A stretch of 64,000 bases of DNA from sequence record PV467748.1; one strand, 5' to 3'. The position numbers were made by a program, and so were the translations under genes. The notes under the pieces were generated by a model. That model had not been told where the DNA came from, did not search any database, and saw only the letters and a program-made list of their open reading frames with translations. This document shows, in pieces, positions 26,712 to 39,510 of the stretch; within the stretch, counting starts at the first letter, position 1, and each line of letters starts with the position of its first letter. Source of the stretch: a phage.

Positions 26712-27308
26712 TTAATTACCACGGGCTGCATTAGCAACGGCGTAAGCGTACTGAACATTAGCGTCTTTAAACGTACCTTTAGAGGTATCTATTTCTGCCT
26801 TAAAGCCACCTTTAGCCATAACATCAGCAAATTCTTTACGGAAAGCCATTGCATCAAGACCTTTCCATGTTGATTTGTGCTTGGCAAATTCAAGACCGGC
26901 GAAGTTGACAGCCTTAGCCAATTTATTATCAATAGTCCATTTACCTGCTTTAGGTACAACTACCGGGCCTTTCTGTTTAGAGAACAGTTTTAAATTCCAG
27001 CGACGAAGGTCGCCGTCAGCTTTAACAAAAGCTGCGTCCAAGTTACTAGCAACAACATCCTGAATATGGCCAAATTTAAGCCCATCAGCTTCAATATTTA
27101 GGTCGTTACGCCAGCGAAGTCCTTCCCAGGCGAAAGCTTTAAAGTCAGAAGCTTTTGTAGCTAAGTACCGTTCAATAGGAGCTGTTTTAGCATCAAAACC
27201 GTTTCCTGGGCGATCAACGCCGTTTCCTCGGTAAGTCCACTCATCTTTATTAATGCCTTGGACCTTTCCTACAGAAGCTTCGGCGATAAATTCTTTATAC
27301 GTTTTCAT
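26712..27308 (-). CDS. internal-protein-like gene with CTS (198 aa; ipII position)
   Basis: Track ORF starting MKTYKEFIAE; lies between denV and e where T4 carries ipII/ipIII. Confidence 0.6.
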   Translation of the reverse strand: MKTYKEFIAEASVGKVQGINKDEWTYRGNGVDRPGNGFDAKTAPIERYLATKASDFKAFAWEGLRWRNDLNIEADGLKFGHIQDVVASNLDAAFVKADGDLRRWNLKLFSKQKGPVVVPKAGKWTIDNKLAKAVNFAGLEFAKHKSTWKGLDAMAFRKEFADVMAKGGFKAEIDTSKGTFKDANVQYAYAVANAARGN

Positions 27309-27390: not shown

Positions 27391-27789
27391 TTATTTGTAA
27401 GTTTTCATCCAATTCTTGAACAAAGCCGCGACGTCTTTCTCTTTAACGTTCAGTTTAACGTCCAGCATTTTGCCACCAGCGGCACGTGTCTGACGAATCT
27501 TAGCCGTACCGGTTTCGCCGTTCCACTCAACATAATACTGTCCGGTGTTCATAGCGATACCATCGCCATAGTCTTCATTTTTAGAAGTGGTGAATGCCAG
27601 CTTCATAGTCTTAGATACACGAGCCTGCATGCCTGACTGTAGAGCGTTACGAACGCGAATAACCTGAGGAGTGGCCTGGGTCAGGTTCTCGTTCAGTTCT
27701 TCGGTGAACTCTTCGGATTCGAACATCGCCAAAAGTTCTTTAGATGCAGGAACTACATTCTCTGCGATAAATTCATTATAAGTTTTCAT
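27391..27789 (-). CDS. internal-protein-like gene with CTS (132 aa; ipIII position)
   Basis: Track ORF starting [10 protein letters not shown]; ends ...KNWMKTYK*, a CTS-like remnant at the 3' end. Confidence 0.6.
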
Positions 27790-28300: not shown

Positions 28301-28750
28301 TCAAAAGAGCGAATCTAAAACCTTAAACATCGACGGGCCCATGACATATTTCCATTGTGGACGTTTAATCAAGGCAAAGGCATCGAATTCAGGAATCGTA
28401 CGACCATCAGGGAACGTATGGTAAGCTGTACATTTGCAATTCTTGAACTGCTCGTGTTCCACAGGCACAGTATATAAGAACAGGTGTAGATTCTTATTGC
28501 TTGAATATTTGAACTCGCCTAGGTCTTTCAGGAATGCAGGATCGTATGCCGTGAATCCAATCTCTTCTTCGGTTTCACGCATTGCGGCTTGAATAGGCTC
28601 TTCGCCTGGTTCTACATGACCTTTAGGAATGTCCCATTTATGACGCATGTTCTCTGGATTACGAGAGCCTGTTACACGACCCATAACTAGTTCTTTATCA
28701 ACGGTCATGAACAAAATACCGGCAGATAGTTCTTTCACTTTCTTACTCAT
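28301..28750 (-). CDS. nudE: Nudix hydrolase NudE
   Basis: Track ORF 28301..28855 trimmed to ATG (MSKKVKELSAGILFM...); Nudix box GHVEPGEEPIQAAMRETEEEIG; sits directly downstream of e as in T4. Confidence 0.8.
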   Translation of the reverse strand: MSKKVKELSAGILFMTVDKELVMGRVTGSRNPENMRHKWDIPKGHVEPGEEPIQAAMRETEEEIGFTAYDPAFLKDLGEFKYSSNKNLHLFLYTVPVEHEQFKNCKCTAYHTFPDGRTIPEFDAFALIKRPQWKYVMGPSMFKVLDSLF

Positions 28751-28979
28751 CGTCTCGTTTCCATGATTGGTTAAAAATATCTTGCATAATAATTTGAAGT
28801 CTATTTTCTGATGATGGACTTTCACTATCAGACACTTGAAGCATATAGTCACCAATAGGACAGAACATATTCATATCGCTTTCTAAATCTTCTTTGATTT
28901 TCTCTTCTGACGTTCCGGTATCATAGGAATACAGATAAGAATCACATGACTCAGATTTAATATAAATTGCAATACTCAT
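28743..28979 (-). CDS. hypothetical acidic protein (78 aa)
   Basis: Track ORF; start coupled to the upstream stop. Confidence 0.4.
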   Translation of the reverse strand: MSIAIYIKSESCDSYLYSYDTGTSEEKIKEDLESDMNMFCPIGDYMLQVSDSESPSSENRLQIIMQDIFNQSWKRDDE

Positions 28980-29569
28980 TTACGGCATTCCTTAATAAAC
29001 TCATTTAAATTATGTTTGTTTTTACCTTCGTCGTAAAGACGTTGTTGACGACGTAAACGCCATGGCATTTCAATAGCCAAGCACCAAATACTTAAAGCAG
29101 CGCCAGCTGTGAAAAGATTCATTAATCCGGCGCCAATAATAGTTCGTTCTAGCGCATCATTCCAGTTAGCATCGATTAAAAATGAACTCAACACTAACAT
29201 TGGAAGTAAAGTAATAAAATACGCTACAACATATCGTCCGAACGTAAGCCATTCAGTATCGATGAGCTTAGCCTTTCCATCTTGGAGACAAATATACTTA
29301 TCGTCAGTGCGGGTGATTTTCTTTACCGGTTGCCAACCATTTACGATATAACCCATTCTGAACTCCTCAATTAAAAGCTGTTTCATTTCGGCAGTACAAC
29401 CTGACCAATCTATTGTACTGGCTGAAATTCCTTCATCACCGTCATCGATATTTCGCCAGGACTTTTTAATAATCATAGTCTCACCACTTGGGATAATAAT
29501 TCCGGCATTTTCCGACCGACGGATGAAGTTTGTATCAATACCCATACAACCAGGTTCATAAAGGGCCAT
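28976..29569 (-). CDS. membrane protein (197 aa) with C-terminal tail ...NEFIKECRK
   Basis: Track ORF; two C-terminal TM helices then a basic tail whose last codons contain the SD of the next gene. Confidence 0.5.
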   Translation of the reverse strand: MALYEPGCMGIDTNFIRRSENAGIIIPSGETMIIKKSWRNIDDGDEGISASTIDWSGCTAEMKQLLIEEFRMGYIVNGWQPVKKITRTDDKYICLQDGKAKLIDTEWLTFGRYVVAYFITLLPMLVLSSFLIDANWNDALERTIIGAGLMNLFTAGAALSIWCLAIEMPWRLRRQQRLYDEGKNKHNLNEFIKECRK

Positions 29570-30255
29570 TACCAGCCCTCCATAGGAAATTCCAGATATA
29601 CTTGAGCATTAACGCGGATTTCATTTGTAATCTTTTTAACACGGTCGGTATTACGAGACACACGACCAAACCAGCGCCACCCGTTACTTACTGCACGAGA
29701 ACCTGTATGCCATGTTTGCCAATCAAACTGGAGTAACGTGCGGTCAGGAGCATCCCACTTGGTTAATTCATTGGACTCAATTTTTTCCAGAACTTCTTTA
29801 TGCCACTGGCGATAGATAAGTTCGCCTTCAGGAATCTGACTGAACCAGGCAGTTCCGGTTGCAAAATGAGTAGGACACACATCAGCGTTAACAAGACCAA
29901 GAATATGTTCAGAATGGTATCGAGGATTATCATAATCAGGTTGGCCTGCGGTAATAAAGTGTTGACCCACCGGAATATCCGGGCGTGGTACATCATCATG
30001 GTGATAACCTGGGATAGCAGGATACCAACCAGGCATCAGCATATGAACCCGAGAATCAAATACGCATTCAACGGCTTTCCACTCATCAGGGAGATTAGTA
30101 ATAAAGCTACGAGTAATAGGACCACCATTTTGTGCAGCAAAATTCAAATCGCAGTTAAAGAACATAGGCTCGTTTTTAATATCATCATTAGAAATATGAC
30201 CTGCAAAACCACCTACTGCACGAGCTTTAGAATTAAAAGTTTTTGGACCGTTCAT
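29569..30255 (-). CDS. hypothetical protein (228 aa) with His/Asp cluster YHHDD
   Basis: Track ORF; possible metal-binding HxD...H arrangement, not a confident family assignment. Confidence 0.45.
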   Translation of the reverse strand: MNGPKTFNSKARAVGGFAGHISNDDIKNEPMFFNCDLNFAAQNGGPITRSFITNLPDEWKAVECVFDSRVHMLMPGWYPAIPGYHHDDVPRPDIPVGQHFITAGQPDYDNPRYHSEHILGLVNADVCPTHFATGTAWFSQIPEGELIYRQWHKEVLEKIESNELTKWDAPDRTLLQFDWQTWHTGSRAVSNGWRWFGRVSRNTDRVKKITNEIRVNAQVYLEFPMEGW

Positions 30256-30269
30256 AATATTTTCCTCAC

Positions 30270-30482
30270 TTACTTTTTGTTGAAAAAGTACATTTTACCT
30301 TTAGGAGATAAGGATACACGAAGGGCGTTACCAATACCAACTGAACATTTAACCAGGTCAGCAGATTTCAATTCACCAAATGCTTGACGAAGGTCTCCAT
30401 CACGGGTGTTAACCATCAGGCATTTAGCACCAGCTGCACGAACTTCGTTTAACATGTTGATTGCTTGGTTAGAAAGTTTCAT
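30270..30482 (-). CDS. hypothetical protein (~70 aa)
   Basis: Track ORF 30270..30560 starts at TTG within promoter sequence; trimmed to the ATG (MKLSNQAINML...) after SD GGAGAATAAA. Confidence 0.45.
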   Translation of the reverse strand: MKLSNQAINMLNEVRAAGAKCLMVNTRDGDLRQAFGELKSADLVKCSVGIGNALRVSLSPKGKMYFFNKK

Positions 30483-30493
30483 TTTATTCTCCA

Positions 30494-30551
30494 TTTCACT
30501 CTGTTGTTTTGATAGGTCTATAGTATCACACCTATAGACCTTGTACACTGT
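30494..30551 (-). promoter_or_regulatory. early promoter cassette variant with internal 10-bp palindrome aggtctatag/ctatagacct (-35 GTGTAC, -10 TACTAT)
   Basis: Plus ctctgttgttttgataggtctatagtatcacacctatagaccttgtacac. Confidence 0.55.
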
Positions 30552-30560
30552 TTTGTGCAA

Positions 30561-31520
30561 TTATTTTTCGAAAGGACGAATTAAATGATGGTTATCTTGG
30601 AAACGCTTGATGTAGTCGTTTTCACCTAAAGTCTTATACATATTCACTACAGCTTGGTAGTTTTCCCAGGCGTACTCGCGGAACCAACCTGAAGTGATTG
30701 AGGTACACACTTTCTCAAGAGCCATATAAAAACTTAATGATGGTGAAATATTGAAATCATTAGGAACCTGTGAACGTTCTAGTGCCAGGACACAAGTTTC
30801 TTCATATACACCAGCCAGTTTAATAGCTTCAGGCAAAGCCTCGAACTTCTCACGAGAGGTCATGACTTCAGAACCTTCCTTCATATAAAAGGTATATGCA
30901 GGGCGTCCAGCCAATGCTACTGCTTCATGAATAGAGTCATGGTCCAGCGTATAAATGGTATCATTAAAGAACGATGATTTGTTTACGTCCAATTTAGGGT
31001 GAGAATAGCTCAACGTTTCTTTTTGACGTTGCAACATAATTTCCTGGAGTTCTTCGTTCAGGGTGATACCTTTATTACGAAGGTATTTGATGTGGGACAT
31101 AGTTTTCAAGAAGAACGGATTATTCTTCAGGAAACGATGAGAGGTTTTGATAGCCAGACAGATATCAGGGGTTGCCCAATAGAAACCAGTAAGACGGTCC
31201 TTTTTAATATGATTTTCAGCATATTTCAGGAGACGATAGCTTGAAGTGAAATCTTCGTCTTGAAGCTCACCGGTAATTTCTCGTACGTTAGTCAGGGCAC
31301 GAACGATATAAGCTTCAAAATAGGTTTCTTTACCGTTGTACATGCATTTAAAAGCCTGGACATCAGGGTTATCCACAGGAACATGAGCGCCGAACATACG
31401 TGCTTTAAAGTGATTCCATGAGCCTTGGTCGGCAATGAAATCCCAATCAGAATTTTCGATATGCTTACTTTCAATCAGACCTGCGTGGTGCAGTGCACGA
31501 GAACCAATAACTAGCATCAT
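30561..31520 (-). CDS. hypothetical protein (319 aa); N-terminal GS...SDWDF motif loosely resembles a nucleotidyltransferase loop
   Basis: Track ORF MMLVIGSRALHHAGLIESKHIENSDWDFIAD...; assignment weak. Confidence 0.45.
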   Translation of the reverse strand: MMLVIGSRALHHAGLIESKHIENSDWDFIADQGSWNHFKARMFGAHVPVDNPDVQAFKCMYNGKETYFEAYIVRALTNVREITGELQDEDFTSSYRLLKYAENHIKKDRLTGFYWATPDICLAIKTSHRFLKNNPFFLKTMSHIKYLRNKGITLNEELQEIMLQRQKETLSYSHPKLDVNKSSFFNDTIYTLDHDSIHEAVALAGRPAYTFYMKEGSEVMTSREKFEALPEAIKLAGVYEETCVLALERSQVPNDFNISPSLSFYMALEKVCTSITSGWFREYAWENYQAVVNMYKTLGENDYIKRFQDNHHLIRPFEK

Positions 31521-31547
31521 AATATTTTCCTCATTAATAAAGACGAG

Positions 31548-31700
31548 TTACTTCATATTTACCCAGTTCAGATTTTTTGCTTCAATACGCGTTGCGGCTA
31601 GATTAGCAGCCTCTAGTGAAGAAAATTGGACCACTTGGGAAGTATTCTGCCTTACGCCACCTTGTGGGTGAGTAACAAAAACAATAAGAACATTATACAT
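31548..31700 (-). CDS. hypothetical small protein (50 aa)
   Basis: Hand translation MYNVLIVFVTHPQGGVRQNTSQVVQFSSLEAANLAATRIEAKNLNWVNMK; fills an otherwise empty gap; weak SD; below the track cutoff. Confidence 0.3.
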   Translation of the reverse strand: MYNVLIVFVTHPQGGVRQNTSQVVQFSSLEAANLAATRIEAKNLNWVNMK

Positions 31701-31721
31701 AATATTTTCCTCAGAGTAAAC

Positions 31722-31961
31722 TTAAATTTCAGCAACGTAATCGTTATGCAATTCCCACATATCATCAGAATTATTCTTAATGATAGGAATTATCTCATTA
31801 GAGATTTCTTCTGCATAAGGGTCATTGATACAGTGAGCATCTTCAAAACTAACACCGTAATCAGACTTCTTATAGGCAAAGCCATAAATCTTTTTAAACT
31901 TGACACGACTAATTCGTACCGGCTCATCAGACTTATCAGACAATGGAGAGTAATACCACAT
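31722..31961 (-). CDS. hypothetical protein (79 aa)
   Basis: Track ORF. Confidence 0.45.
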   Translation of the reverse strand: MWYYSPLSDKSDEPVRISRVKFKKIYGFAYKKSDYGVSFEDAHCINDPYAEEISNEIIPIIKNNSDDMWELHNDYVAEI

Positions 31962-32002
31962 ATGTTCTCCTCGTTTGTGTAGGGTAATAGTAACATGATT
32001 TT

Positions 32003-32332
32003 CTAGAGTTGTACATCACTTCTGCAATATTCTAAAAATAATTTATCATTGTCTACTGTATCCCAACGACGCCAAGATGGGTTCCAGACCAAAGCGTTGT
32101 CACCACAATCATTGAGCTTAAAATGGTCGTAGTACATAGCTATATGTCTGGTTTCGTCGCCAGAGAACCCTAGTATAGGCTCACCATGAGTATGATACAT
32201 ATGATGGTGCATTGAGAGGTCGCATTTGTAAAACATCTCACGTTTACCACGAATGAACAAGAAAGCTTGACCATTCATATAGAATTCTTTATCTGTTTTC
32301 AAAAGATATTTGAATACCGAATCTTTATGCAT
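32003..32332 (-). CDS. hypothetical His-rich protein
   Basis: Track ORF 32003..32347 trimmed to ATG (MHKDSVFKYL...); contains HHHMYHTH. Confidence 0.4.
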   Translation of the reverse strand: MHKDSVFKYLLKTDKEFYMNGQAFLFIRGKREMFYKCDLSMHHHMYHTHGEPILGFSGDETRHIAMYYDHFKLNDCGDNALVWNPSWRRWDTVDNDKLFLEYCRSDVQL

Positions 32333-32362
32333 AAGTCCTCCTACCACATCCTTGTGGTTAAA

Positions 32363-32590
32363 TTATTTTCCTAACGAAACACGAGTAGGTTTTTTACCAA
32401 AATAGTCTTCATAAGACCCATCTAAACGACCTGCTTTAGACCGACAATATGAATCGTACTTTTTGTAATAAGACATCTCAGTATTATACCGCGGGTGTCT
32501 ATCAGACATAATAATACTTAACGGCCAACCTTTGGCATAATCGCGAAGACCATTTATTTTACGAATGTATCTTTTCTTTAATTTTAGCAT
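32363..32590 (-). CDS. hypothetical basic protein (75 aa)
   Basis: Track ORF. Confidence 0.4.
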   Translation of the reverse strand: MLKLKKRYIRKINGLRDYAKGWPLSIIMSDRHPRYNTEMSYYKKYDSYCRSKAGRLDGSYEDYFGKKPTRVSLGK

Positions 32591-32808
32591 GAGCTCGGAT
32601 ACCAGATTTTACCATCGGCCTGGGCAACGAAGGTACGACCAGCTTCTTCACCATAACAAGAGCTATTCAGCCAATCTTCGAGACGAACTTCGCCGTCATA
32701 ATCGTCGAGCTCAACACCAAAACTTTGAGCAGAAGCCATATCTTTTACTTTCTTATACAGTGCAGCCAGTTCAAGTGCCGCTTTTTCTAATTCATTAATA
32801 TCAGACAT
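32584..32808 (-). CDS. small protein, paralog family member 4 (C-terminus ...YPSSC)
   Basis: Track ORF 32584..32958 trimmed to internal ATG (MSDINELEKAALELAALYKK...). Confidence 0.45.
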   Translation of the reverse strand: MSDINELEKAALELAALYKKVKDMASAQSFGVELDDYDGEVRLEDWLNSSCYGEEAGRTFVAQADGKIWYPSSC

Positions 32809-32818
32809 TTTTATCGCC

Positions 32819-33031
32819 TTAGCAAGACATAGAGGATGTAAACCAGAAACCTTCACCATCCGGGATACCGTAATCATCACGGGCCCATTCATAATCATCA
32901 TATTCCGGATTCTTTGGAGAAATGTATTGTCCACGACCAGAAACATGGAACTCTTCACCCGTTTCGTCAGCCACGGCCTGGCCTTTACGTACTAATTCGC
33001 GGATTTGTTTTTCAATTTCATCAATAGTCAT
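32819..33031 (-). CDS. small protein, paralog family member 3 (C-terminus ...FTSSMSC)
   Basis: 70-aa track ORF with SD AAGGAAATAAA upstream. Confidence 0.5.
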   Translation of the reverse strand: MTIDEIEKQIRELVRKGQAVADETGEEFHVSGRGQYISPKNPEYDDYEWARDDYGIPDGEGFWFTSSMSC

Positions 33032-33040
33032 TTTATTTCC

Positions 33041-33322
33041 TTAACATTCAGAAGAAGAGGACACCCAACCGCCATTTTCTAGGCTGGTGGTGTAATCATG
33101 CTGGTTTACAATAGCGTACTGGGCTTCACCGTATTCTTCCCAGTGGGCAAGGTCGGCTTTCAAGGCGCCAGGAGAATAATAGTCACCGCCCATACCGCGA
33201 GCAGGGTATATATTAAAATGAGTCTCATATTTGTCAGCAATTTCCTCAGCACGACGAATAGCTTTGTGGATATCATTTACTGCGTCAGCCAGCTCTTTAT
33301 TTTTATGGTAATCATTCATCAT
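33041..33322 (-). CDS. small protein, paralog family member 2 (C-terminus ...VSSSSEC)
   Basis: 93-aa track ORF; shares the EEIADKY motif with member 1. Confidence 0.5.
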   Translation of the reverse strand: MMNDYHKNKELADAVNDIHKAIRRAEEIADKYETHFNIYPARGMGGDYYSPGALKADLAHWEEYGEAQYAIVNQHDYTTSLENGGWVSSSSEC

Positions 33323-33331
33323 AAAATTTCC

Positions 33332-33622
33332 TTAGCACATTGCCGAAGAGGAGATCCAAGCACCAACTGTAACGACGCCATTTTCAACTTCACCACCGTT
33401 GTTTTCAATTTCATCTTTAAACCACTGGGAGCATTCATAACCAACAGGGTAGTATGTACGTCCTGAGCCATAATCACCTGTTCCGAATTGAATACCGTAC
33501 TTATCGGCAATAGCTTCACATTTGGATTCGATGGTATCCACTTTATTCAGAAGAGCATAGATAGCCTTTTCTGCAGATTTCTCGTCGTTGTGTTCTGGGA
33601 TTTCGATTTCAATTTTATTCAT
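33332..33622 (-). CDS. small protein, paralog family member 1 (C-terminus ...ISSSAMC)
   Basis: 96-aa track ORF; EAIADKYGIQF motif; GGWxSSSxxC-type C-terminus. Confidence 0.5.
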   Translation of the reverse strand: MNKIEIEIPEHNDEKSAEKAIYALLNKVDTIESKCEAIADKYGIQFGTGDYGSGRTYYPVGYECSQWFKDEIENNGGEVENGVVTVGAWISSSAMC

Positions 33623-33969
33623 GATTTACATTCCTTAATAAAGGTTTCAAGGTCATTACGTTTGGTTTGTTTTACATACTCATTATAATTAGCCATCTCT
33701 AAAGCATATCTCTTTTTACGCGGCTTGTTTATCCTATTGGTGTTGATAATATCCAAGACCAGAGGGATAAAGTATCCTATTAAAGCTGGAACCCAAATCC
33801 AGGCAAGGTTCAATTCAAATAGGTTTTGTGTCGTATCATTAACGACTCCACCAGCAATTAGTCCAACAAATCCGGCAATCGTACCAGTGACAAGTCCAGC
33901 GAATAAAGAAATAGCGATATCATAATCTGCTAATGCGTAACCAGGGTCGGTTTTACTAGGCTTATACAT
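33619..33969 (-). CDS. membrane protein (~116 aa) with C-terminal tail ...DLETFIKECKS
   Basis: Track ORF 33619..34005 trimmed to ATG (MYKPSKTDPG...); TM helices then basic tail. Confidence 0.5.
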   Translation of the reverse strand: MYKPSKTDPGYALADYDIAISLFAGLVTGTIAGFVGLIAGGVVNDTTQNLFELNLAWIWVPALIGYFIPLVLDIINTNRINKPRKKRYALEMANYNEYVKQTKRNDLETFIKECKS

Positions 33970-34498
33970 TTTGAACCTCTTTAGCGTATTCACGGCATTC
34001 AGCAATAAAACGATTAAGCTTCCGTTGTTGTTTACGACTTTCTAATGTGTACTCAGTAGTTAAGATACCAAGCTCGGCTTTATCATAATTTTTAATATCA
34101 GTGTAAGATGGGCGACGGTCGACCATTCCAAATACATCACCATTTTCTAAAGCTACATAGCATACTAAATGGTAATCATCGTCTGCTATATTAAGAAGCA
34201 CACAATCAGCGCTCTCGTTTAAAGAATATACTGAATAACGTAGTCCGGCGAATTCCACTCGTTGAATAGCCAGATTTACGTCAATAATTTCCAAAGCATC
34301 TTCAAAAGAAAGGTCTTCAGCTAAAGCAAAAATAAAAGGTAATTTGGTAGTATCGCCACGGCTAGATGTTCTGCTTAAGAAATCGTTTGAATAGCCTAGG
34401 TCTTGGCGAATTCTATAAAGAACTGAATTGGTTTCATGGGAAAGACCGCTATTTTTAAACCAATCAATATTAGATATCAAATTATCATATAAGCTCAT
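33962..34498 (-). CDS. hypothetical protein (178 aa) with tail motif ...NRFIAECRE
   Basis: Track ORF with SD GGAGGAGAGGAG upstream. Confidence 0.5.
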   Translation of the reverse strand: MSLYDNLISNIDWFKNSGLSHETNSVLYRIRQDLGYSNDFLSRTSSRGDTTKLPFIFALAEDLSFEDALEIIDVNLAIQRVEFAGLRYSVYSLNESADCVLLNIADDDYHLVCYVALENGDVFGMVDRRPSYTDIKNYDKAELGILTTEYTLESRKQQRKLNRFIAECREYAKEVQNV

Positions 34499-34514: not shown

Positions 34515-34539
34515 CCAAATAGGGAGACCGAAGTCTCCC
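34515..34539 (-). terminator. terminator-like hairpin (GGGAGAC-TTCG-GTCTCCC) followed by the SD of the next gene
   Basis: Plus agggagaccgaagtctccc; weak U-run. Confidence 0.4.
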
Positions 34540-34546
34540 GGTAATA

Positions 34547-35140
34547 TTACTTAAGTGAATTAATGTAGTCTTCGATATCAGCAGAAGTCGTATCCATTCC
34601 AACTTGTGGGCCTTTAAACGTTTCTACACGAAGCAGGGTATCTTCAATATCAATCTTAGTCAGTGCAGCGATTTCAACAACATCATCGGCAGTAGCAATA
34701 CCAAGGGCAGCCATATTACGAGTTTCACGGATGTACTCGAGCTTAACGGCTAGTTCCTGACGGGAGTCATCAAGTTCCTTGACCTTCAGTTTAATTTCAT
34801 TACGCATTTCGATATAATCATCGGCTTTCTTACGAAGTTGAGTAGCCGTACGACGGTAAAGGAGGCCAAGTTTAGCATGCACCTGAACATCAGAGCCTTC
34901 TTTAATCAGTTTACGAATTTCGCGTTCTTTAGAACTAGCCAGTTGGTCTTTTTCGTTAGCAAGTTCACGAATACGTTTTTCTTCATTCACCGACTTAACA
35001 TGAGCAGTCTGGAGTTCAGTAATTTTATCAATCAGGGTAGAAGCAGCTTTAGTATACTGGTCTTCGATTGACAGGTTCTGAGTCATTGCGGTACCCAGTT
35101 TAGAACGGATGAACTCAACAATTTTCTTTAAAGTATTCAT
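34547..35140 (-). CDS. coiled-coil protein (~198 aa), possibly PspA/IM30-like
   Basis: Track ORF 34547..35215 trimmed to the ATG ([15 protein letters not shown]...) after SD GAAGGAAATACT; long heptad-rich helices; family assignment tentative. Confidence 0.4.
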
Positions 35141-35159: not shown

Positions 35160-35216
35160 TGGTATTTTGTAATCCATGAGGACATTATACCCTGTCCTCT
35201 GAGGGGTGTAAACATT
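35160..35216 (-). promoter_or_regulatory. early promoter (-35 GTTTAC, 18-bp spacer, -10 TATAAT) with arms GAGGAC/GTCCTC flanking the -10
   Basis: Minus-strand read GTTTACACCCCTCAGAGGACAGGGTATAATGTCCTCATGG. Confidence 0.55.
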
Positions 35217-39237: not shown

Positions 39238-39510
39238 TTATTTTAAATAAATTGCATATTTTTTATAACCAGCTGTCTCGTGGCGCAGCCCTTTTTCATT
39301 AGCAAAACGTTCAATATTATTGATTTGATTCTGGTCAAGTTCTGACGTGTCAAATACAAAAAAGTTTCGCTTGTTGCCTAAAGTTACATGATTAGTCAAA
39401 TCGATGTTATAGAGATGATTTATATTATCAATCATGGTCTTAACAGATTTGTTAATTTTTGCTTCTTCATTAAGAATAGATTCAGCGATAAATTCTTGAT
39501 AAGTTTTCAT
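39238..39510 (-). CDS. internal-protein-like gene with CTS (~91 aa)
   Basis: Track ORF 39238..39555 trimmed to ATG giving MKTYQEFIAESILNEE.... Confidence 0.55.
   Translation of the reverse strand: MKTYQEFIAESILNEEAKINKSVKTMIDNINHLYNIDLTNHVTLGNKRNFFVFDTSELDQNQINNIERFANEKGLRHETAGYKKYAIYLK

Follow-up and report, generated by a model that had tools for sequence, protein, structure and literature searches.

Why do three genes of one phage, two encoding membrane proteins and one a soluble protein, carry nearly the same short peptide near their C-termini? The genes lie on the minus strand of a 64,000-nt stretch of phage DNA (sequence record PV467748.1; this whole stretch is hereafter called the window), at 28976..29569 (ORF1), 33619..33969 (ORF2) and 33962..34498 (ORF3), where an earlier note on the sequence had placed the three open reading frames (ORFs). 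That note offered three readings of the common tail: a protein module that the genes share, a junction for translational coupling that they share, or the two combined. Our analysis supports both, at different positions of the tail: the peptide is conserved as protein across T4-like phages, and where the next gene overlaps, the codons in its middle also form a Shine-Dalgarno (SD) sequence. The window shares 97% identity with Escherichia phage fDHCT2 and 92-95% with JS98, Bp7, and further Dhakavirus genomes; by these identities it is a Dhakavirus, a JS98-like relative of T4 within the T4-like Straboviridae.

In a six-frame translation of the whole 64 kb, the pattern FI[KA]EC[RK], and even the shorter FI.EC, matched at only three places, all on the minus strand and near the C-termini of ORFs. 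The codons are TTT ATT AAG GAA TGC CGT (F-I-K-E-C-R) in ORF1 (28982..28999), TTT ATT AAG GAA TGT AAA (F-I-K-E-C-K) in ORF2 (33625..33642), and TTT ATT GCT GAA TGC CGT (F-I-A-E-C-R) in ORF3 (33992..34009). Composition predicts 0.004 matches in the window for the longer pattern, which was defined after the fact, against the three observed (Poisson probability of at least three, ~1e-8); the three-fold occurrence is far from chance. The claim that all three proteins end in this motif held for ORF1 (FIKECRK before the stop) and ORF2 (FIKECKS), but ORF3 continues for nine residues beyond it (FIAECREYAKEVQNV before the stop).

Hydropathy placed two transmembrane (TM) helices at residues 108-126 and 148-166 of ORF1 and at residues 20-38 and 57-75 of ORF2, each pair followed by a basic segment, as the earlier note had described. 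ORF1 has a soluble N-terminal part ahead of its TM helices and a basic juxtamembrane stretch after them, leading into the tail ...NLNEFIKECRK; ORF2 (116 aa) closes with a basic, predicted cytoplasmic helix ending ...DLETFIKECKS; and ORF3 (178 aa), which is soluble with no TM segment, ends ...KLNRFIAECREYAKEVQNV. Since two TM helices are combined with a strongly basic C-terminal segment, the positive-inside rule indicates that the tails of ORF1 and ORF2 should be cytoplasmic. AlphaFold2 modeled helices at residues 110-134 and 138-196 of ORF1, the second unbroken through the tail, with a predicted local distance difference test score (pLDDT) of 64-83 for residues 138-196 and below 50 for the soluble part. 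The tail of ORF3 was helical at low confidence in a model with a pLDDT of 46.7. On a helical wheel, tail positions -3, 0, +1, +4, and +8 fall inside a 100 degree arc, where L/I, F, I/V, C, and V line up as a narrow stripe bordered by the Arg; apart from this stripe, the segment is highly polar (mean Eisenberg hydrophobicity -0.3 to -0.6). A hydrophobic stripe on one face of so polar a segment argues for a helix that packs on protein, not into the bilayer.

The three genes belong to the "e" cluster of T4-like phages, in which T4 e.2, e.3, e.4, and e.5 correspond to PHROGs 2203, 2330, 2604, and 2607 (relatives of PHROG 2607 being 13418 and 10830). ORF1 matched PHROG 2203 (E=8e-70, residues 32-197 covered), is named e.2 in the JS98 and Bp7 annotations, and aligned with RB14 e.2 at 44.8% identity over 100% of the query (tblastn); precomputed Pfam data place PF26896 on its homologues. 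Like the e.2 family, it shows full-length similarity, lies directly upstream of nudE-proximal genes, and has two TM helices in its C-terminal half, and on this similarity it is a homologue of T4 e.2. ORF2 aligned over its full length with T4 e.3 (BLASTP E=6e-9, residues 1-115), and PHROG 2330 was matched by both (E=1.5e-38 for ORF2 and 2.9e-57 for T4 e.3). With two TM helices and the N-terminus M-x-K-P characteristic of the e.3 family, ORF2 is, as judged by its sequence, a homologue of T4 e.3. ORF3 falls in a PHROG of its own, 8788, and matched the T4 e.5 family, PHROG 2607, only weakly (E=0.006, 28 residues). In BLASTP, just the 15-residue tail aligned between T4 e.5 and ORF3, the rest of the ORF3 body having no detectable similarity, and the two share the extended tail F-[IV]-x-E-C-R-E-Y-[AV]-K. 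ORF3 is also the first gene 3' of e.6, encodes a soluble protein, and carries F-[IV]-x-x-C-R followed by at least five residues, as e.5 genes do. It is probably a strongly, fast-diverged e.5. In all, e.2 and e.3 have homologues by sequence in ORF1 and ORF2, and e.5 has a positional counterpart in ORF3.

We defined the tail group as [FWY]-[IV]-x-x-C-[RK] at most ~30 residues from the C-terminus, with a hydrophobic residue at -3, in a gene of the e.6-to-nudE cluster; all three window ORFs belong to it. The tail consensus is h-x-x-[FWY]-[IV]-x-x-C-[RK], then 0-25 residues to the C-terminus. It is borne by e.2, by the small two-TM proteins e.3 and e.4 along with copies particular to some lineages, and by the soluble protein in the e.5 position, all encoded between e.6 and nudE with one to five tail-bearing genes per genome in 12 genera or lineages. 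Tail genes were found in Tequatro-, Mosig-, Dhaka-, Gapriver-like, Kanagawa-, Jiaoda-, Winkler-, Teguna-, Biquarta-, and Pseudotevenvirus genomes; Providencia phage PSTCR6 has variants with Y for F, and Ceceduovirus has a variant only, in which Arg is replaced by Ile (FINYCI). Jiaodavirus and RB69 have five tail genes each (those of RB69 including ORF133c), Kanagawavirus, Winklervirus, and the Gaprivervirus-like phages four, Tegunavirus three, and Biquartavirus (Aeromonas) and Pseudotevenvirus one. Among 39 tails aligned on the aromatic residue, that residue was F in 35 (W in 2, Y in 2), followed by I in 30 and V in 9; C was present in 30, and the basic position was R in 33 and K in 6. A hydrophobic residue occupied -3 and an acidic or polar one -2. 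The motif is followed by 0-6 residues in the membrane proteins and by 5-25 in the e.5-position proteins; members of the e.4 family have their Cys two residues away from the usual place (FVKESRC, FVKEIRC).

In T4, the tail is present on e.3 (KEFVIDCRKIK), e.4 (MKFVKESRCKSQS), and e.5 (EKFVKECREYVKAITIPSK), and on a relic of e.2, a gene broken by in-frame stops whose old frame is still readable as far as NLNNFITECRKLK, immediately ahead of nudE. In the complete T4 genome (566 six-frame ORFs, 69,073 aa), [FW][IV]xxCR matched e.3 and e.5 only, the e.2 relic and the shifted e.4 variant FVKESRC adding two tails beyond the strict motif. With a tail hidden Markov model (HMM), scores were 13.8-20.4 bits for the five strict members (in T4 and the window) and 6.0 bits for the highest-scoring other ORF among 791; as those members were part of the training set, the informative part is that nothing else matched. 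The end of e.6, D-Y-I-N-S-L-K, looks tail-like by eye, yet e.6 was outside the top 30 tail-HMM matches. The association with e.6 was also seen in IMG/VR, where 46 loci were found via e.6. Of the 45 that were readable, 41 had the strict motif at the end of the first ORF (80 aa or longer) after e.6, and this held while e.6 identity fell from 98% to 28%. The exceptions were a truncated (possibly frameshifted) e.5, an inserted ORF, and the Ceceduovirus variant. An exhaustive representative search of 1.84 billion proteins returned six representative clusters of the two-TM family, which retain FIKECKS, FIREVR, FIDDCK, and FVRDCRK.

Two observations accompany this survey. The T4 e.2 annotated at 102 aa (T4 locus L003 3473-3961, minus strand) is a truncated gene: past its stops, the same frame encodes the end of the second TM helix (TM2) and the tail (..IEMPWRLRRQQKIFDEKKYAQNLNNFITECRKLK before a stop) up to nudE, and the intact e.2 of RB14 has 162 aa. 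On a Gaprivervirus-like contig (L005 6713-6859, plus strand), a 48-aa ORF upstream of e.6 with one TM segment ends NFIMVCRKTKFK; its motif match lies partly within the hydrophobic segment and may be due to chance.

Conservation of the tail acts at the protein level. F, I/V, C, and R are kept with differing codons across genera: Phe by TTT/TTC, Cys by TGC/TGT, Arg by CGT/CGC/CGA/AGA/AGG, and Ile/Val by ATT/ATC/GTT/GTG/GTC/GTA, with this turnover seen in homologues from T4, RB69, and Kanagawa-, Jiaoda-, Winkler-, Teguna-, Biquarta-, and Pseudotevenvirus. The motif is also retained where the next start codon lies 31, 43, or at least 17 nt past the stop (in a Jiaodavirus 102-aa gene, a Tegunavirus 95-aa gene, and Aeromonas e.5, respectively). 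Within the e.2 and e.3 families, no stretch varies less than the tail, and the TM regions show ~25-50% identity. In hhalign and BLAST comparisons between families, only the tail aligned, together with a juxtamembrane R-x-QQR stretch between e.2 and the e.5-like protein. The nucleotide-versus-protein comparison that the earlier note had called for therefore did not return a purely nucleotide-level signal, because the conserved codons change synonymously and the tail is kept without an abutting gene.

In the Dhaka/Gapriver group, the ORF1 and ORF2 genes are mosaic, with conserved ends and TM regions of two very different allelic types, a pattern suggestive of exchanged cassettes or of diversifying selection in the membrane portion.

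At two of the three junctions, tail codons have a second use, as the earlier note had suggested. The K-E codons of ORF1 and ORF2 supply an SD sequence, AAGGA, 9 nt upstream of an ATG that overlaps the stop codon as ATGA: the SD at 28989-28993 precedes the ATG at 28977-28979, and the SD at 33632-33636 precedes the ATG at 33620-33622 (all minus strand). The genes whose starts are coupled in this way lie at 28743..28979 (PHROG 2900) and 33332..33622 (PHROG 899), also on the minus strand. The ORF3 motif itself is not an SD; the next ATG (33967-33969) lies 5 nt before the ORF3 stop, and its SD, GAGGT (33975-33979, minus strand), comes from K-E-V codons 30 nt downstream of the Phe codon.

This pattern recurred among the homologues. 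Where the next ATG overlaps the stop, the SD consists of the two middle codons of the motif (AAG GAA/GAG, or AAA GGA), and in T4 e.3 it is built from the R-K codons AGG AAA. In SD-supplying K-E tails, Lys was encoded by AAG in ~8/8 families (grouped as independent by hand) versus 30% AAG in the genes of the window (P ~7e-5), while the K-E tails that do not supply an SD, those of RB69 ORF133c and two Gapriver-like e.5-like proteins, use AAA. Tails distant from a start codon have AE, ME, TE, DQ, KY, AK, DY, or KM as middle residues. In the Dhaka/Gapriver set, synonymous variation was 5/27 in nine tail codons versus 52/99 in 33 upstream codons (P=0.002), a reduction that fits an overlapping translation-initiation region. 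The middle codons are held as AAG GA(A/G), or R-K as AGG AAA, and act as the SD of the next gene where such an overlap exists. The locus is a clean natural case of dual coding, two motif codons fixed as AAG GAA being also the ribosome-binding site of an overlapping gene.

The reduced synonymous variation, the use of the K-E codons as an SD, the exact 14-mer TTTATTAAGGAATG common to two window tails, and the mosaic e.2 and e.3-like genes with variable middles and conserved ends might all be read to mean that the conserved sequence is a coupling junction (SD plus overlapping start) or a recombination linker, with the amino-acid motif as a by-product. Linkers of this kind are known: PeSLs, non-coding composites of an early promoter and a stem-loop that act at the DNA level in hyperplastic regions of T4-like phages, mediate documented shuffling there (PMC4122927, PMC2839356), and like the tails they are short conserved sequences at gene boundaries in variable regions and are tied to mosaic genes. 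In the tails, however, the codons for F, I/V, C, and R vary between genera while the amino acids stay constant, the third window tail and many others supply no SD, and the motif persists with the next gene 17-43 nt away. The 14-mer occurred only at the two window tails, with no further copies beyond chance and no wider DNA repeat. Folding of the three junctions was no better than that of shuffled sequences (z ~+0.5), giving no RNA structure, and no promoter-like site or stem-loop was found inside the tails. A purely nucleotide-level explanation is already largely refuted by these observations, and we give it very little credence. As PeSL cassettes in particular, the tails were rejected: they are coding, lack a promoter-like site, and have no fold above shuffles, and between genera it is their amino acids rather than their nucleotides that are conserved.

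What, then, would a conserved peptide do on proteins that share little else? The explanation that best covers the whole, in which we place moderate confidence, is that the tail is a docking helix for a common partner, or for the tail proteins among themselves, with the SD overlaid on it. The data establish the motif and where it occurs, that it is conserved as protein, how it is oriented and that it is helical, and that its codons are used twice; the docking function and the identity of any partner are what we infer. In the membrane carriers, the tail would be the far end of a long helix running from TM2 into the cytoplasm. Such a helix would let otherwise dissimilar membrane-anchored and soluble proteins bind one shared partner, or each other, and the carriers would be a changing set of early, non-essential accessory proteins. 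The feature, a short peptide shared by otherwise dissimilar phage proteins with an SD overlaid, is real and modestly important. By its presence on at least five protein families in 12 genera or lineages, it would join orphan genes of T4 into one functional group. T4 is among the best-studied viruses, yet our searches of family libraries and of the literature by gene name recovered no description of the motif and no function for e.2-e.5 or for e.6.

Several points weigh against a docking helix. No binding partner was identified by any test here. The amphipathicity of the tail is moderate and not always above shuffled controls, and the AlphaFold2 model of the e.5-like protein is poor. The Cys is replaced in 9/39 tails (by V in 4, I in 2, and M, S, and K in 1 each), which means that the tail does not depend on any one chemistry; given the V/I/M replacements in some paralogues, bridging of a metal or a disulfide by the Cys would not be obligatory either. 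Finally, e.3, e.4, the C-terminal half of e.2, and RB69 ORF133c may be old paralogues, whose common tail would then be explained by descent with no need for a shared partner.

This last point leads to a different account, in which the C-terminal half of e.2, e.3, e.4, the ORF133c-like genes, and perhaps e.5 are tandem duplicates of one small membrane protein, and the tail is the slowest-evolving part of each because it matters for that protein's own folding, topology, or homo-oligomerization, with no common partner. The genes do stand in tandem with a like architecture of two TM helices, basic stretch, and tail; e.3 and e.4 show a weak full-length alignment, RB69 ORF133c matched the two-TM-plus-tail part of the e.2 PHROG (E=8e-4), and PHROG cross-matches link the e.5-position proteins of several genera. 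Paralogy with a local role is thus plausible for the two-TM proteins, but it fits the soluble e.5-type proteins less well, which have the same tail without a TM hairpin. Everything except the tail has diverged beyond detection, and duplication would require 4-5 lineages to have been under unusually strong and uniform selection at the very same 6-9 residues over the divergence of the Straboviridae. Since only the tail is conserved across these lineages, one common constraint is the simplest explanation, and we regard a relic of paralogy as a serious though unlikely alternative to a docking helix.

Two further readings liken the tail to a known element. In an unbiased search, the best PDB match of the tail profile was the amphipathic helix of M. 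jannaschii SecE (QKIEQLKEFIEECRR), at E=0.07, and the T4 e.5 tail FVKECREYVKAITIPSK aligned without gaps to E. coli SecE 71-87 with a BLOSUM62 score of 29, reached by 1/1000 shuffles; the same register was chosen by 6/7 tails. In SecE and Sec61-gamma, too, a conserved amphipathic helix on the cytoplasmic side and close to the membrane follows the pattern F-h-(K/R)-E-(small)-R. By imitating the cytoplasmic amphipathic helix and hinge of SecE (FAREARTEVRKVIWPTR in E. coli), the tail could dock phage proteins on SecY. The E=0.07 match is not significant, however, and a PDB-wide phmmer search with the T4 e.5 tail missed SecE and instead found a chance FVKEC in an unrelated enzyme; a profile of the e.5 tail had no matches, and Pfam SecE was unmatched. 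The helix order is opposite, before the TM segment in SecE and after TM2 in the tail proteins, and E. coli SecE has Ala at the positions of the tails' most conserved I/V and Cys. SecE mimicry is in our judgment very unlikely. Taking a SecE helix to be one with a significant profile match, a position before the TM segment, and a K-V-x-W-P hinge, we rejected the tail as a member, as it gave no significant SecE profile match and has the reverse helix-TM order.

The second known element is the capsid targeting sequence (CTS) of T4 internal proteins, found at the N-terminus of head proteins, where gp21 cuts it after Glu. Could the tail be such a capsid-targeting or prohead-protease signal, like MKTY(Q/N/K)EFIAE, which is cleaved after I-x-E? 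Both are peptides of about ten residues on otherwise unrelated phage proteins, the CTS bringing its carriers to one destination, and EFI(A/K)E can be read in both. Of the seven FI[KA]E matches across the six frames of the window, six fall in the three tails and in three internal-protein N-termini. The tails, by contrast, are C-terminal, and in the membrane carriers lie on the cytoplasmic side of the inner membrane. Their Glu varies across genera (FIKGCR, FVDQCR, FIQMCR, FIKYCR), whereas C-R, absent from the targeting sequence, defines the tail and is conserved. The tail HMM scored N-termini resembling the targeting sequence at only ~6 bits. We find this reading scarcely credible, and as a CTS the tail is ruled out by its C-terminal place and by a Glu that is not conserved across genera. 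The three internal-protein genes that start MKTY(K/N/Q)EFIAE lie on the minus strand, with the N-terminal matches at 27279-27290, 27760-27771, and 39481-39492, and account for 3/4 of the other FI[KA]E matches; T4 gp61.1 starts MKTFKEFIKE.

If the tail is a docking helix, the best candidate for its partner would be the product of e.6, by inference from gene neighborhood. The window e.6 homologue (34547..35140, minus strand; PHROG 1203), a predicted coiled-coil protein, heads the cluster, and a further e.6 is at L026:3998-4594. The gene is conserved in 1111 phage records and always directly precedes the first tail gene, also where the pair has moved beside nrdD/nrdG in Aeromonas and Pseudotevenvirus phages. 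Searched against the PDB, a profile built from 11 homologues of e.6 had Synechocystis Vipp1 as its top matches (E=0.006-0.02, residues 1-143 on 1-145). Two Pseudotevenvirus e.6 homologues matched PF04012 (PspA_IM30) at E=4e-4 and 0.0095 (20.4 and 16 bits), and the 20.4-bit match placed residues 2-144 on profile positions 3-146, in the same collinear register as the Vipp1 alignment. Judged from these profile matches, the similarity of e.6 to PspA/Vipp1 is convergent but sub-threshold, and e.6 may be a distant relative.

These matches raise the possibility that the e.6-to-e.2 cluster is a phage Psp-like module for membrane maintenance, with e.6 as a divergent PspA/Vipp1 (ESCRT-III-fold) protein onto which the tails dock e.2-e.5 and others, recruiting or regulating e.6 at the host inner membrane while infection proceeds. 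PspB/PspC and LiaI are small inner-membrane proteins whose cytoplasmic C-terminal part binds a PspA-type effector (PMC5596341, PMC7619361). They are encoded beside the PspA-type gene, and here, too, two-TM proteins with a cytoplasmic C-terminal helix are encoded downstream of e.6, an analogy of adjacency and topology. If e.6 is PspA-like, the two-TM proteins would resemble PspB/PspC or LiaI in recruiting a PspA-type protein to the inner membrane, and T4-like phages would bring a membrane-stress machinery of their own, membrane adaptors included.

Other results weigh against this, and we regard a Psp-like module as a tentative and rather improbable proposal. The best PF04012 match, at 20.4 bits, is below the curated cut-off of 33.9, and the window e.6 protein had no PF04012 match. 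NCBIfam returned coiled-coil noise for e.6 (SMC at 6e-4), with LiaH at E=0.11, and hhalign of e.6 against E. coli PspA aligned residues 1-27 only, at 2% probability. The adjacency of e.6 and e.5 could be plain conserved gene order. By eye, the C-terminus of E. coli PspC has no similarity to the tails, and Psp systems have no counterpart to a tail on a soluble protein such as e.5. A literature search for phage-encoded PspA found nothing.

The setting of the tail genes is that of the T4 "e" cluster, and the whole region is on the minus strand: e.8, an ORF (orf133 in JS98), e.6, the tail-gene region, nudE, e (lysozyme), and internal proteins. A promoter-like site, TTTACA-17-TATAAT with 11/12 consensus matches, lies upstream of e.6 (35184..35212, minus strand) and, going by its sequence, is a possible early promoter of a transcription unit comprising e.6 and the tail genes. 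Given this site and the tight packing of the tail-region genes, whose stops and starts overlap, e.6 and the tail genes are likely co-expressed. Scans of the three proteins and their neighbors with Pfam, NCBIfam, and PADLOC yielded nothing meaningful, PHROG labels for the proteins were limited to "unknown function" or "membrane protein," and word-indexed searches for homologues brought up no more than close relatives.

A 48-nt gap separates the e.6 stop from the start of the e.5-like gene and holds a perfect hairpin with a UUCG tetraloop, GGGAGAC-UUCG-GUCUCCC (34522-34539, minus-strand sense), which a simple terminator scan did not call. Stable UUCG hairpins are known from T4 intercistronic regions.

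Compared to T4, the window has no copy of e.4 and, like RB69, has a block of other genes, ~4 kb long, between its e.3-like and e.2 genes. This block includes two larger conserved ORFs of 228 and 319 aa (29569-30255 and 30561-31520, minus strand), homologues of RB69 ORF132c and ORF134c with no Pfam, NCBIfam, or PADLOC match; one or both have homologues in the equivalent block of Kanagawa-, Winkler-, and Tegunavirus.

The same block begins with four tandem small paralogues (32584-33622, minus strand) at 32584-32811, 32819-33031, 33041-33322, and 33332-33622, of which the last listed, first in the order of transcription, is the gene coupled to the e.3-like tail. They end KIWYPSSC, GFWFTSSMSC, GGWVSSSSEC, and GAWISSSAMC, that is, W-x-(S/T)-S-S-x(0-2)-C with Cys as the last residue. 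This PHROG 899 family is absent from T4 and is present in 2-5 copies between the e.3-like gene and e.2 in RB69 (ORF136c-139c), Kanagawa-, Winkler-, and Tegunavirus, and Providencia phage PSTCR6, giving the cluster a second, distinct conserved C-terminal motif.

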